Made by a program: the position numbers and the translations under genes | Part shown: positions 13,222 to 53,491 of the stretch, one piece after another | Numbering within the stretch: position 1 is the first letter of the stretch | How the letters are laid out: each line of letters opens with the position of its first letter | Notes under the pieces: generated by a model | What the model was told of the DNA's origin: nothing | Seen by the model: only the letters and a program-made list of their open reading frames with translations | The model's database searches: none | DNA from: Parcubacteria group bacterium ADurb.Bin326 | GTDB lineage: Bacteria; Patescibacteriota; Patescibacteriia; 2-01-FULL-39-33 | Assembly (NCBI GenBank): GCA_002068915.1 | Contig: MWBE01000017.1 | Coordinates: forward strand, 3,818 to 67,817 | DNA: 64,000 nucleotides | Reading direction: 5' to 3'

Positions 13222-13749
13222 TTAAATTTTTCGGCTGTCGTAAGCCCAATGCAGTAATGCTTGGCGCTGTTTGCGCGAGCAGGATAAGTCCTTGGGCGCA
13301 CAGCGGTGTTTGAGTTGCGCAATATGCCGCTTCATCATCTTCCAGCGCTTGATTTGTCGCCCGTCTTCTTCCGGCATCCGCCTACCCAGATAATACCGGC
13401 AATACCACTGAAACCAGCCGCGCGGATCTTCTGGTTTAATCCAACCATTTTTACGCCACACCGCTAATGACTGGCTAGCATCAACACCGAAATAGTTTAA
13501 TTTGGGACTATGGCCCGGGGTTTTCAAGGGGTGTAATTTTGCTTTTTTAAACCAAGCAACGGGAAACTCCTTACGACAATCGCGCAAATACCTGCCGCCA
13601 AATACCCCCAATTCCAACATCTCTTGAGGGGTTAGTTTCGGCTTGAATTCCGGATCAAAATCCTTACCCGTTGGCTCACTCAAATAATAACGATAACCGC
13701 GCTGCATTTTATCGTTAACAACTATCAGTTTTTTCTTTGCTAATGGCAT
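13222..13749 (-). CDS. hypothetical protein with a conserved-looking W/Y/R-rich motif (GWFQWYCRYYLGRR)
   Basis: 175-aa ORF. Composition is somewhat GC-shifted relative to its neighbours. No family confidently recognised. Confidence 0.45.
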   Translation of the reverse strand: MPLAKKKLIVVNDKMQRGYRYYLSEPTGKDFDPEFKPKLTPQEMLELGVFGGRYLRDCRKEFPVAWFKKAKLHPLKTPGHSPKLNYFGVDASQSLAVWRKNGWIKPEDPRGWFQWYCRYYLGRRMPEEDGRQIKRWKMMKRHIAQLKHRCAPKDLSCSRKQRQALLHWAYDSRKI

Positions 13750-13803
13750 ATGTTTATAGAATAATTATAACAAAAAACAATTAAATCTTAAATAAATTAA
13801 GCG

Positions 13804-13832
13804 TTGACAATTTATCAAATTTATACTAATCT
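13804..13832 (+). promoter_or_regulatory. candidate promoter (TTGACA ... TATACT/TAATCT, suboptimal spacing) for the GC-rich zinc-ribbon gene, followed by a strong SD AAGGAGG
   Basis: TTGACA at 13804-13809. Possible -10 hexamers at 13823-13828 or 13827-13832. AAGGAGG lies 8 nt before the ATG at 13887. Confidence 0.35.
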
Positions 13833-13886
13833 ATTTTAGATAGTCAGTTGTCCTTTCCATAAACATCAACTAAGGAGGATTGTGTC

Positions 13887-14366
13887 ATGAGAGCGACTCG
13901 AAACAACTCGGGTGAAGCCAAGGAAGTAAAAGAGGCCAGAAAGCGTCTACACCAGATGCGCGGTACTGGCTTTGTTCTGACCCCAGACGCCGCCAAGCTG
14001 ATTATGACGGCCGGAGGCCCGACCTTTAGAACAGTTAGTGGCGGCTATCGTTGCAACCAGACCGGAGAGAAGGTGGGGCGAGGCAGCACCGAGAACTACC
14101 GCCAACGAGTGTACGGACTGGCGGCTCCGCCCAAGCCGGTCGTAGTCCAAACGAACGCTTCGGCCAGCTCTTCTAGGAGAACGGTCCAATCGCACATTCC
14201 GGAAATTGACATCACCAGCCCTGACGTCTTTATACGTTGTCCAAACCCGCTCTGTGAAGTTGGGATCGGCTATGCCAATCTCATGCTCGAAGGTATCGGG
14301 GTCTGTCCGAGGTGCAACAAGCAGTTTCGAAAAATCCGACACCCGCAATCAGTGAAAAGGACGTAA
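13887..14366 (+). CDS. hypothetical GC-rich protein with a C-terminal Cys4 zinc ribbon (CPNPLC...CPRC)
   Basis: 159-aa ORF with SD AAGGAGG. Visibly higher GC than flanking genes. The in-frame sequence after the TAA stop (14367-14492) encodes a second CPHC...CQFC zinc ribbon. Confidence 0.55.
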   Translation: MRATRNNSGEAKEVKEARKRLHQMRGTGFVLTPDAAKLIMTAGGPTFRTVSGGYRCNQTGEKVGRGSTENYRQRVYGLAAPPKPVVVQTNASASSSRRTVQSHIPEIDITSPDVFIRCPNPLCEVGIGYANLMLEGIGVCPRCNKQFRKIRHPQSVKRT

Positions 14367-14520
14367 CCCAGTCCAACCGGAAACATCAACTGCCCGCACT
14401 GCTATGAACGAATCGCCCACATTGTTAATTTTTCTGATTTTTACTCGACGATTGAGTGTCAATTCTGCCACCGCAAGCTGATCGTCGAGTAGGATACACC
14501 CTGTCCTCCCGACTACACAT

Positions 14521-14562
14521 CCGCCGGCGCGCCACCTAGGCTCGCCGGCTTCTTTTTTTTAT
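14521..14562 (+). terminator. intrinsic terminator (GCCGGCG ... CGCCGGC + T9) ending the GC-rich cassette
   Basis: GC-rich inverted repeat followed by ttcttttttttt. Confidence 0.6.
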
Positions 14563-14582
14563 TAGATTCTTTAACATAAAAA

Positions 14583-14612
14583 CAAAAGAGCGATTACTAA
14601 TCGCTCTTTTGT
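14583..14612 (-). terminator. intrinsic terminator downstream of the tRNA-Asn 3-prime exon (minus strand)
   Basis: AGAGCGATTA-g-TAATCGCTCT hairpin followed by a U-run on the minus strand. Confidence 0.55.
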
Positions 14613-14670
14613 TAATTAAAAAATCACCAAAGCTCCGCGAACTGGATTCGAACCAGTAACCTACCGGTTA

Positions 14671-15218
14671 CACTTATCTCTGACTTTCATCAAAGGGTGG
14701 ACTATATCATTACCTTTTCCAGTCTATTGGATTAAGGTATCAGGCGCTTCGGCCCGCCTTTAACGGCGGAACTACTCCCCAAAGGGATAGTCTCTGAACC
14801 TTCCCCTGAAAGGGGCTTGGCTGCGGATTACCATATCCTTGCGGACTTAGGCTTCCCGCAATTCACCTGATTATCATTCCAAAATTTCTTTCGGAAGCTG
14901 CGTGGAGCCGGAATGTAATTCTCTATGACAATTAGCACATACTAACAAGCATTTATTAATCTCTTGAATGACTTTATCCCAAGATCTTGAAATCCTTTTG
15001 AGGAGACGCCAAAATCTTTTTTATTGCCATCCAAATGATGGAATTCTAATGCTTGCACGCATTTACTGTAGCCACAGATTTCACACTTGCCGCCTTTATA
15101 TTCCAAGGCCTTATCCCTTACGGCTTTACGCCTCTTGGACACTGCCTCAATCAAATATTTACGACGGTCGGCATATTTTCTATTATCTTTAGTCATAACT
15201 TTTGATAACAGACGGTTC
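14671..15218 (-). mobile_element. group I self-splicing intron (~548 nt) in the tRNA-Asn anticodon loop, carrying an HNH endonuclease ORF
   Basis: On the minus strand the classic core elements are read directly: P AATTGCGGGAAG (14852-14863), Q AATCCGCAGCC (14819-14829), R GTTCAGAGACTA (14788-14799), S GATATAGTCC (14699-14708). P3 ATCAGG/CCTGAT. Candidate IGS GCAGC pairs with exon GCUGU with a terminal U-G. Omega-G at 14671. Confidence 0.8.
14942..15196 (-). CDS. intron-encoded HNH-family homing endonuclease (CEICGY ... EFHHLDGNKKD)
   Basis: The ORF track shows 14942..15238, but its first 7 codons lie in the tRNA 5-prime exon. The likely start is the internal Met at 15196 (MTKDNRKY...). C-x2-C plus HH..N HNH motif. 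Confidence 0.55.
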   Translation of the reverse strand: MTKDNRKYADRRKYLIEAVSKRRKAVRDKALEYKGGKCEICGYSKCVQALEFHHLDGNKKDFGVSSKGFQDLGIKSFKRLINAC

Positions 15219-15338
15219 ACAGCCGGTTGCTCTACCATTGAGCTATCGCGGAACTCTAGTGATTTTTATGTACTTTAATGACGTTAAATATCTTAACAAA
15301 TTTTTCTGGCTAAGTCAAGCCAAATTTTCTGTGGAAAA

Positions 15339-23559: not shown

Positions 23560-24762
23560 TTAGATATTATCAGCTTGAGCTGCCTGATCTATTGCTTCTT
23601 CCATAACAGCCTCTGTTATAGAATTTTCGTTGATAGCGTACTTGCCTTTTTCGTTTTTCTTAACCTTCTTGTGATTCATAAGAGACAAGTATACGGTCGA
23701 GCGCTTAACATTTCTACGCTCTAAAACCTTTTCAATAATCTCGTCTTTGGTTAATGGTCCGTTTTCTCTGATTATCTCCTCGATTACATCGGCCACATTT
23801 CCCGGCTTATAGCCCCACTCCTTCAAAGCATAAATGCCGCGTCCCACCAAAACATACTTTTCGTCAAGTATTAATTCATTATGTACTGTCGGAGCGTAAG
23901 CAACTTTGCCATCAAAAGCATTACCATTAATTGAATCGGCGATTTCTGTAAAATGCATCGGGCGACCTGATTTTTTAAGGGTAAGATAAATCTTATCATT
24001 AATTTTCTTAGGCTTAACGATGCCCCAAGAGATTAATCCCCAATTATTGAAGATATCTTGGCGAATCTTTCTAGAAGCGCGCAAATAGCTTTCAAGAATT
24101 TTATTGACGTCAGTCTCGTCAGCTTCCAACATGGTAGTCAAGAAAAGGATTTTCTCTTTATTGTCATTAAAGAATGCGGATGACTTAAATTGTGAAAGCA
24201 ACTGATCAAGGCTAATGGGATCGCCGTTTTGTTCGATGACGTTAACCATTTCGGTTATAACCTTCTTAAGGAAATCAACATCGGAAACACCTAATCTCCA
24301 AAGGTTGTTAAACTCCTTGTCCTGATTGATCTTATTGATATTGTCGGTAAAGATATGTTCAGCCAAAAACAGCAAAGAATTTTCGCTTTCTGAATGGGCA
24401 TTAAGATAGTTGAGCACATTCTCCAAAAAGAAAGACTCTTCCATCACTCCGCCATATTGCTCTAAAAGTTGGACAACCAAAGTTTCAGCCTCTCTAATCT
24501 CTTCCTTCGATTCTCTTAATTCTTTGAGCTTCTTGATGGAAAGATTTTCTATTTGCCTGACGCGTTCTCTGGTAATGCCATATTTCTGGCCTATTTCCTC
24601 TAGGGTATACCTCTTGTCAACGCCTAAACCAAATCTTTTGGTGATAATATCCTTTTCTTTTTCAGAAAGATTATCAAAAAGATAGCCCAGGGTGTCAACC
24701 GGATTAAAGGATGACAAACCATCTTTAAATTTGTTTTTTCTTACTTGATCCAAGATAGACAT
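23560..24762 (-). CDS. DNA-binding protein with an N-terminal sigma-70 region-4-like HTH (no recognisable sigma region 2)
   Basis: 400-aa ORF. Residues ~35-85 (DIITKRFGLGVDKRYTLEEIGQKYGITRERVRQIENLSIKKLK) resemble region 4.2 of sigma factors; the remaining ~300 aa are not sigma-like. Confidence 0.5.
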   Translation of the reverse strand: MSILDQVRKNKFKDGLSSFNPVDTLGYLFDNLSEKEKDIITKRFGLGVDKRYTLEEIGQKYGITRERVRQIENLSIKKLKELRESKEEIREAETLVVQLLEQYGGVMEESFFLENVLNYLNAHSESENSLLFLAEHIFTDNINKINQDKEFNNLWRLGVSDVDFLKKVITEMVNVIEQNGDPISLDQLLSQFKSSAFFNDNKEKILFLTTMLEADETDVNKILESYLRASRKIRQDIFNNWGLISWGIVKPKKINDKIYLTLKKSGRPMHFTEIADSINGNAFDGKVAYAPTVHNELILDEKYVLVGRGIYALKEWGYKPGNVADVIEEIIRENGPLTKDEIIEKVLERRNVKRSTVYLSLMNHKKVKKNEKGKYAINENSITEAVMEEAIDQAAQADNI

Positions 24763-51988: not shown

Positions 51989-53491
51989 ATGAAGAAACTT
52001 AGTGTTGTATTGATGATGGTTTTTGTGGTTTTCGGCTGCCTGGTGCTTACCGGCTGTAACAAGCCTGGCGACAACAACGGCGAGAACCCGCCGGCCGTGG
52101 TCAACCCTGAAGGCGAAACGCCCGAGGGCGAAGACGGGCCGACGATCCGCCCGGTTGTGGAAGGTGAACCTGAGACCCCTGCGGTCGAGGGTGAACCGGA
52201 AGTGCCTGCCGAGGGCGAGCCCGAAGTGCCGACGGAACAGTCCGGCAGTATCGTTATCACCGGAGTCCTTTTCAAGGGACTGCCGGCAACCAAGGCGCTG
52301 AGCGCGGACGAGAACGGACTGACAGCTGAAGAGCTGAGTCAGGCGTTCCTCGAAATCGCTGCGGCGACCGATGGACTGGAGTTGGTGCTTGACGGTGACG
52401 GCGAGAATGATTACAAACGCTCCTGCACTGTGCAGAGCGACGGGTCATTCTTCTTGCGCCTGGCAAGTGTTCTGCCCGGCGATTACAAGCTGGAGCTGAA
52501 CACCATGTCCAGCACCACCGGCATCAACGGCTGGGGCAAATCCGAAGTCGATGTGAAAATCGAAGCCGGCAAGGTCACCCAGGTGACCGTCGCCCTCGAG
52601 CGGATGGAAACGTTCGCAATCCTCGGATACTTCAGCGATGAACTCGCGGAAGATGAGGATTGGGGTTCGTTTGAAGCCTTCCTAGTCGACACCGCGGGAA
52701 ACAATTATACCGCGGTCCTCGCCAAAAACGATGCCGACGAATGGGTGATCAACGGGTACAACCTGCCTGTCTCGGCCATCATTGGGGCCTTGAAGATCAC
52801 GGGCGACGACATCGAAACCATGATGTTCGCCGTCGACACGACGAGCACGGCTTTCGAGAACGGCTACTCGTTATTCGACGTGATCGACAACGAAGCCATG
52901 CTCGCCCTCGTATCCGACACTGGAGACCTTGAAGTCACCGTCCCCCCGATTGATCTGGGTGAAGGTGAAGACGAAGAGGGCGAAGTTGAGAGTGAGGACG
53001 AAACCGAAGGCGAAGGCGAAACTGAAGGCGAAGGAGAAGTTGAAGATGATAACTCCCTTCCCCTGGTCGCCGGCAAAGCGACGGTCGGGCTGATCATCGA
53101 AACCGATGGCTCAGTGACGATGCTCGCCGACGCCAACGAGGGCTTCAGCCTGCCCCTGTCCTTCTACGGCCTCCCCGCTTCGATTGCCTCGCTCGGCGTC
53201 GAGGTTTACTACCTGGATGACGCCCACGACCCCGACGGTGCTTGGGAAGATCGCCAAGTCGTGGCTTGCTCCGGACTGCCGTTCGAGGCAACCGTGAACA
53301 TCTTCGATTCCCCGGTCTGGCGTTTCCAAGTGGTTGCCAACTCCGTGGACATGTGGGCCGGAAACTATGCCAACTCCGTGAAGTTCCATGTCGTGGTCAA
53401 GTACCGCGATGCTGAGAATTGGACAACACTGAGTCAGTCCGATGACGGCAGTGGCAACATGGCGTACCAGGTCGATACCCGGACGCTGTAA
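51989..53491 (+). CDS. GC-rich acidic lipoprotein (500 aa; lipobox LVLTGC; Glu/Pro-rich linker repeats; Asp/Glu-rich segments)
   Basis: [19 protein letters not shown]. Signal peptide plus Cys lipobox. Composition strongly GC-rich compared with neighbours. No catalytic motif recognised. Confidence 0.55.
   Translation: MKKLSVVLMMVFVVFGCLVLTGCNKPGDNNGENPPAVVNPEGETPEGEDGPTIRPVVEGEPETPAVEGEPEVPAEGEPEVPTEQSGSIVITGVLFKGLPATKALSADENGLTAEELSQAFLEIAAATDGLELVLDGDGENDYKRSCTVQSDGSFFLRLASVLPGDYKLELNTMSSTTGINGWGKSEVDVKIEAGKVTQVTVALERMETFAILGYFSDELAEDEDWGSFEAFLVDTAGNNYTAVLAKNDADEWVINGYNLPVSAIIGALKITGDDIETMMFAVDTTSTAFENGYSLFDVIDNEAMLALVSDTGDLEVTVPPIDLGEGEDEEGEVESEDETEGEGETEGEGEVEDDNSLPLVAGKATVGLIIETDGSVTMLADANEGFSLPLSFYGLPASIASLGVEVYYLDDAHDPDGAWEDRQVVACSGLPFEATVNIFDSPVWRFQVVANSVDMWAGNYANSVKFHVVVKYRDAENWTTLSQSDDGSGNMAYQVDTRTL

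Follow-up and report, generated by a model that had tools for sequence, protein, structure and literature searches.

A derived premature stop codon truncates a GC-rich zinc-ribbon gene next to an intron-containing tRNA-Asn in a Parcubacteria genome

The window analysed here, a stretch of 64,000 nucleotides from Parcubacteria group bacterium ADurb.Bin326, contains a gene of 159 codons plus TAA (13887..14366, plus strand) that is the truncated allele of a zinc-ribbon family gene. The polarity of the change and its spread in the population show that the TAA is a genuine stop and a derived one. In the model that we propose, the ancestral form in this lineage would have been a two-ribbon protein of 201 amino acids. 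A single C-to-T change would have converted codon 160, located in the linker between the two ribbons, from CAA into TAA. The present product would then consist of the N-terminal domain and ribbon 1, and what remains of ribbon 2 would lie untranslated ahead of the original terminator. If the ribbons act as additive nucleic-acid-binding modules, the loss of one of them would tune the function of the protein rather than abolish it. Taken as a whole, the derived truncation of a two-ribbon family gene whose GC-rich codon usage has been maintained is, in our judgement, the probable explanation of the locus.

The nature of the stop was established from homologues. The sequence obtained by joining both parts of the frame (201 aa) was searched by a word index against 5.8 billion proteins, and two proteins were returned. 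P0001 (201 aa) is 92% identical to the joined sequence, and P0002 (213 aa), a syntenic orthologue, is 52% identical; neither is interrupted where the gene of the window stops. The contig of P0001, L001, is colinear with positions 13393-14661 of the window at 97% DNA identity, and that of P0002, L002, is a diverged orthologous locus. L001 has CAA (Gln) at codon 160 and L002 has AAG (Lys), while P0027, a further protein of 201 aa, has Gln at this position. Within the codon, the T/C difference at position 14364 is the only one between the window and L001. Hence the possibility of a nonsense mutation, raised together with others in the original prediction, was borne out by uninterrupted reading frames at the equivalent position of the homologues. 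The 90% cluster comprises five alleles, three of 159 aa (P0025, P0026 and P0028; 11, 3 and 1 contigs) and two of 201 aa (P0001 and P0027; one contig each), P0025 being the allele of the window (OQA36898.1). The genealogy of the alleles was built from protein sequences, P0027 and P0028 being known at the protein level. The same TAA is found in 11 other contigs (L003 and L094-L103) that come from different sequencing runs, L003 being 99.8% identical to the window over 9.8 kb. The truncated allele is thus the common one in public metagenomes.

The 159-aa ORF, its perfect Shine-Dalgarno sequence and the GC-rich terminator behind it had all been read from the sequence before, and each was found in its place. 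A promoter-like site with the hexamers TTGACA (13804-13809) and TAATCT (13827-13832) separated by a 17-nt spacer (13804..13832, plus strand) was also located by reading the sequence. The TTGACA hexamer (−35) and the stretch TACTAAT are kept in L002, the rest of the spacer having diverged. The earlier claim of promoter-like elements is nevertheless less firm than the other features, as the automatic consensus scan made no call at 13804..13832. A 16-nt block of the 5′-UTR (13850..13865, plus strand), GTCCTTTCCATAAACA, is conserved in the alignment of the window, L001 and L002, where it has the form GTCCTTTCCAT(A/T)AACA. Its UCCUU is able to pair with the Shine-Dalgarno sequence in the window, although not significantly; a leader hairpin sequestering that site does appear in the minimum-energy fold of the window, but with z = −0.9 and a fold that is not conserved in L002, and it was discarded. 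The Shine-Dalgarno sequence AAGGAGG (13872..13878, plus strand) lies 8 nt upstream of the ATG at 13887, and sites of the GGAGG type precede most members of the family. The ORF corresponds to the NCBI entry OQA36898.1, a hypothetical protein of Parcubacteria group bacterium ADurb.Bin326, and is matched by the family profile with E = 8.6e-43. It encodes an N-terminal alpha/beta domain (residues 7-80; 13905..14126, plus strand), delimited by alignment and AF2 and carrying the motifs GGPTF and (F/Y)RCNQTGE, and zinc ribbon 1 (residues 113-152; 14223..14342, plus strand), with the pattern CPNPLC...x16...CPRC and beta-hairpins in the AF2 model. The stop (14364..14366, plus strand) is followed in the same frame by 41 codons (14367-14489) and a TAG (14490-14492). 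These codons hold the remnant of zinc ribbon 2 (14367..14492, plus strand), with the pattern CPHC...x18...CQFC. The in-frame second Cys4 ribbon past the TAA, also noted originally, was confirmed as a ribbon module by the family profile (E = 4.9e-6). The tail frame (14367-14489) contains no ATG, GTG or TTG, so that it is not translatable on its own.

Downstream of the remnant lies an intrinsic terminator (14523..14560, plus strand) with the stem GCCGGCG...CGCCGGC followed by TTCTTTTTTTT. The folding of the hairpin (14523-14549), which is followed by a T-run, clearly surpasses that of shuffled sequence (z = −4.9), and the element is 89% conserved in L002. Located 30 nt past the old TAG and 156 nt past the new TAA, it is placed for the ORF of 201 codons. 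With a predicted promoter, a Shine-Dalgarno site, an ORF and an intrinsic terminator, the cassette appears to be a self-contained transcription unit. It is followed by a perfect 16-bp hairpin with a T-run (14581..14613, minus strand), which is the terminator of the convergent tRNA gene. Upstream, the ORF list places a gene of 175 aa (13222-13749, minus strand), whose product is 76% identical in amino acids to its counterpart in L002 and has no match in Pfam, NCBIfam or PHROG.

An exhaustive HMMER search with a profile of P0001 and P0002 against 1.84 billion cluster representatives yielded 23 proteins with E ≤ 1e-3, including P0001, an allele of the query, and hence 22 more relatives; six had E ≤ 1e-10. 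They define a new, unannotated family. Its members share an N-terminal domain of about 80 residues, a variable low-complexity linker and then one, two or three Cys4 ribbons. One ribbon is found in about ten members (135-163 aa), two in about ten, and three in P0012. The tandem-module idea of the original prediction holds in this respect, at the level of the family. The N-terminal domain conserves the pattern LTPE-C-LI--AGGPTF, a short hairpin, FRCNQTGE-V and Y--R; the family alignment shows no variation at T46 and Q58 and hardly any at C56, T59 and G60. The ribbon module has the form CP-C...C--C--F-V, with nearly invariant cysteine columns. In the one-ribbon member P0007 the terminator follows directly after the stop, which indicates that an architecture with one ribbon occurs naturally as an end state. 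The ORF of the window has the features by which the family is defined (GGPTF and (F/Y)RCNQTGE, then a linker and one or more ribbons), and its 159-aa product, as predicted, corresponds to the minimal architecture of the family, namely the N-terminal domain plus ribbon 1. The cysteines of ribbon 1 (C118/C123...C140/C143) have the arrangement of a predicted Cys4 module. The AF2 model built with the family alignment has a pLDDT of 87.6 and a pTM of 0.45. Locally, the pLDDT reaches 94-97 in the N-terminal domain and 90-96 in the beta-hairpins of ribbon 1, and falls to 54-61 in the linker. The low values of the linker and the pTM point to independent modules with no fixed mutual orientation. The protein is small and basic (pI 10.3), and it is from this charge and from the ribbons that nucleic-acid binding is inferred.

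Searches of Pfam, NCBIfam, PHROGs and PADLOC for a known protein family gave only sub-threshold matches to generic zinc ribbons, and the weak profile and fold matches were confined to the ribbon part of the protein. The N-terminal domain had no match in Pfam, NCBIfam, PHROG, PADLOC, PDB or BFVD, and is in this sense unlike any known family or fold. GTDB representative genomes, IMG/VR, INPHARED phages and PLSDB plasmids yielded no relatives, and carriage by mobile elements was rejected on these grounds. All the members with a taxonomic label, the protein of the window (Parcubacteria) and P0010 (Patescibacteria group bacterium), come from Patescibacteria. An all-against-all comparison of ORFs at 10 family loci revealed no shared neighbour or operon. 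As to the ribbons, they resemble the generic Cys4 type with rubredoxin-like knuckle pairs, in which two knuckles, CxxC or CPxxxC, stand about 16-18 residues apart on beta-hairpins, and which are likewise small, independent and often arranged in tandem. Ribosomal protein eL43/L37ae, LysW, the FmdB-type CxxC_CxxC_SSSS (TIGR02605) and the double zinc ribbon (DZR) are examples. In the clade of the window, ribbon 1 has CPNPxC at its start and CxRC at its end, a feature shared with the half-RING fingers of IBR (PF01485), and two family members match IBR faintly (best E = 1.5e-5). The match of the window protein reaches 12.9 bits (E = 0.12) against a gathering threshold of 24.3 bits, and IBR was rejected; unlike IBR, moreover, the protein is bacterial and is devoid of the RING1/RING2 context.

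Between strains, the gene varies much more than its surroundings. The window and L001 differ by 28 substitutions in the 606-nt coding stretch and by 3 in the 494 nt upstream (Fisher p = 3e-5), and the gene accounts for 6 of the 17 differences that separate the window from L003 over 9.8 kb (p = 4e-4). The 126-nt remnant holds 4 of these 17, three of them non-synonymous, and the same tail haplotype is shared by L096. Overall, the divergence of the gene is about 8-fold that of its flanks, and dS is 0.08 versus 0 in the neighbouring gene. Variation between strains is thus concentrated locally in this gene, in Parcubacteria genomes that are otherwise nearly identical. The dN/dS ratio versus L002 (0.22-0.28) suggests purifying selection, whereas the fairly high ratio among close alleles (0.43-0.6; 0.43 versus L001) would leave room for a partly relaxed constraint on the gene as a whole. 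The five protein alleles differ blockwise, at residues 9-80, 50/157-160 and 130-184 (permutation p = 0.002), and this clustering suggests segmental exchange. At the protein level there is no four-gamete violation and the five alleles can be ordered in a chain, so that strict proof of intragenic recombination does not follow; only the clustering favours it. The gene was also considered as a DGR target and rejected as such, since no second copy of any of its parts occurs in the window and the differences extend across the whole ORF.

The GC richness of the gene relative to its surroundings, on which the original prediction relied, is significant. The GC content of positions 13887-14492 (606 nt) is 0.538 against a window mean of 0.419 for that length (z = 3.0), and that of the 159-codon ORF alone is 0.554; only one place in the window, at 51.8-53.5 kb, is richer. 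The amino-acid content would account for 47% GC. The GC3 is 0.61 versus 0.426 expected from the protein sequence and the codon usage of the host, an excess that corresponds to z = 5.2 versus host genes and exceeds all of 2000 length-matched chunks of host genes; amino-acid composition therefore explains only part of the GC excess. The shift at third positions is mainly from T to C. A structured RNA was rejected as the source of the GC richness, since the fold of the mRNA is no better than that of shuffled sequences (z = −1.1) and Rfam returned nothing for positions 13887-14560 at E ≤ 5. The excess is a property of the whole family: in 13 of the 13 family loci examined, the gene has 52-60% GC and its flanks 34-47%, which makes 10-17 points over the host. 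The homologues are thus likewise deviant in composition, and the extension past the stop of the gene of the window is genuine. Synonymous sites are saturated between the window and L002 (pS 0.63 in the zinc-ribbon gene, 0.77 in the neighbour), and yet GC3 is high in both lineages (0.61 and 0.64). Its persistence across saturated divergence and the excess in the whole family argue for a maintained trait rather than the mark of a fresh import, so that the GC-rich codon usage would be a maintained property of the family and not the scar of a recent insertion at a tRNA. Its upkeep could be due to selection on the codons of a strongly expressed gene, to GC-biased gene conversion at a locus prone to recombination, or to a steady replacement of alleles from a shared pool. 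In this respect the family is a modest natural system in which to weigh biased gene conversion against codon selection in reduced genomes.

The intron-containing tRNA that had been noted next to the gene is tRNA-Asn(GUU) (14633..15252, minus strand), with exons at 15252-15219 and 14670-14633. The intron (14671-15218), a group I intron of 548 nt (RF00028, 101 bits), splits the anticodon at 35/36, between U35 and U36. ARAGORN misses the unspliced gene, but recognizes the product spliced in silico as tRNA-Asn, and this product is a near match to the intron-less tRNA-Asn that relatives carry directly after rpoD. Group I introns at position 35/36 of tRNA-Asn and tRNA-Asp have been described in Patescibacteria, most of them without homing-endonuclease genes (Nakagawa et al. 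2026, PMC13011429), and the intron of the window matches this class. Unlike most of those, the intron of the window carries an HNH homing-endonuclease ORF (14874..15196, minus strand; phrog_2255, E = 4e-16, and three-frame translation). A frameshift near 14965 separates its HH motif from its CANCHRELH motif, and the ORF is probably a decaying homing endonuclease. The wider flanks comprise AlkD-like and PHP-domain genes, assigned by Pfam, and an alanine-racemase-like ORF, rpoD and dnaG, assigned by sequence. L002, the only relative that shares the flanks, has the zinc-ribbon gene and keeps the order 175-aa gene, zinc-ribbon gene, tRNA-Asn; downstream of the gene it retains the terminator and the 3′ end of the tRNA. 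By RpoD, the closest GTDB representatives are Candidatus Buchananbacteria (78-80% identity); the representatives lose synteny past tRNA-Asn. Elsewhere, at L005 2654-4631, the family member P0008 lies in divergent orientation beside a sigma-like gene, a 68%-identical homologue of which is found at 23584-24762 of the window. Apart from the zinc-ribbon gene, nothing in the window, this sigma-like region included, matched the family profile, from which it follows that the family gene occupies different positions in related genomes.

Readings of the stop other than a derived truncation have to be weighed against these data. Nothing but a single base separates both versions of the gene, and TAA might be an error of sequencing or assembly in a true gene of 201 codons; however, the same T is present at 14364 in all 11 other contigs, which originate from different runs and different pipelines, and we consider an artefact practically excluded. 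The TAA might instead be decoded at some frequency, giving proteins of 159 and 201 aa from one gene. Such programmed readthrough, put forward in the original prediction, would agree with a tail that is intact, with all four cysteines, in most TAA haplotypes and whose protein sequence is the one found in the CAA allele P0027, as well as with the C that follows the stop codon. Against it, the homologues have a sense codon (CAA or AAG) and no conserved stop at the position, TAA is the dominant stop in the window (30 of 38 long ORFs), Rfam and the fold of the mRNA revealed no recoding element, and the TAA haplotype of L003 and L096 has accumulated three non-synonymous changes in the 41 tail codons. 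UAA is, besides, the least leaky bacterial stop. Programmed readthrough therefore did not hold up and is very improbable, although the stop might be read through at a low level. It is also conceivable that the gene as a whole is decaying into a pseudogene, with the stop as one of several disabling changes, and that the 159-aa ORF has lost its function. The 8-fold excess of divergence over the flanks, the dN/dS among close alleles and the rare and patchy distribution of the family fit with decay, but the excess is synonymous as well, which decay does not explain. Furthermore, 10 other assemblies encode exactly the same 159-aa product, the gene has no frameshifts and keeps its start codon, Shine-Dalgarno site and promoter, and the product has the architecture of natural one-ribbon members. 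A dead gene is thus a rather improbable reading. Given the architecture that it shares with those members, the truncated allele is most likely still functional.

A different alternative concerns the origin of the gene, namely that it is a foreign gene recently inserted beside tRNA-Asn in the genome of the window; horizontal acquisition had been suggested in the original prediction in view of the GC content and the neighbouring tRNA. Its atypical codon usage (GC3 excess) would be in agreement with such an origin, as would the position of the gene at a break of synteny after dnaG-rpoD-tRNA-Asn, the lack of the gene within 6 kb of rpoD in the nearest GTDB representatives, and the different positions of family members in related genomes. 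Compositionally atypical DNA adjoining a tRNA gene is indeed what tRNA-linked genomic islands look like. Here, however, a search of the window for a second copy of the 22-nt 3′ end of the tRNA, with up to three mismatches allowed, found none; no other repeat of note occurs at 11.5-15.4 kb, and the ORFs read at 11.5-17 kb do not include an integrase. Unlike those islands, the locus thus has neither an att repeat nor a nearby integrase, consists of a single gene and is kept in a diverged relative. The three-gene arrangement in L002, with its saturated synonymous sites and its GC3 of 0.61-0.64 on both sides, the absence of homologues from the phage, plasmid and IMG/VR collections searched, and the fact that no family member among the loci examined lies in a GC-matched donor context speak in the same direction. 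The idea of a fresh insertion at a tRNA site is corrected by these results, and we regard recent acquisition as an improbable origin of the gene.

Under the preferred reading, a derived truncation, the locus resembles the nonsense polymorphisms of modular bacterial proteins, in which a single-base change in a linker drops a C-terminal repeat module and both alleles segregate. It differs from the usual cases in that the truncated allele is the commoner one and reproduces a natural architecture of the family. It illustrates neatly how a nonsense polymorphism of a single base can drop one module of a modular zinc-ribbon protein; no new mechanism is indicated so far by the findings on this gene. 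A more far-reaching scenario can be conceived. The gene would be a "solo" gene of Patescibacteria, continually exchanged between strains and engaged in genetic conflict or host interaction; the number of ribbons would be a tunable specificity, TAA/CAA a functional polymorphism in module number, and the N-terminal domain a new fold. The 8-fold divergence of the alleles, the clustering of their changes in segments and the GC-rich usage kept in every host would fit such exchange, but the scenario as a whole seems to us unlikely.

Other GC-rich genes were noted in the window and at family loci. The richer place at 51.8-53.5 kb corresponds to a second single-gene GC island (51989-53491, plus strand) that encodes a predicted lipoprotein of 500 aa, with a signal peptide ending in LTGC, acidic EGE-rich repeats and no Pfam match. 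Its GC content is 58% and its GC3 0.71 versus 0.41 in host genes, with the same T-to-C shift at third positions as in the zinc-ribbon gene. In L006 (7136-8804 of a 191-kb contig), the locus of the three-ribbon member P0012, the GC-rich island spans two more small genes upstream, which encode hydrophobic, membrane-like proteins of 115 and 119 aa (GC 55-58%). In L092 (1174-2034), P0019 is followed by a GC-rich gene (58%) of the metallo-beta-lactamase fold with a precomputed Pfam match to Anti-Pycsar Apyc1.
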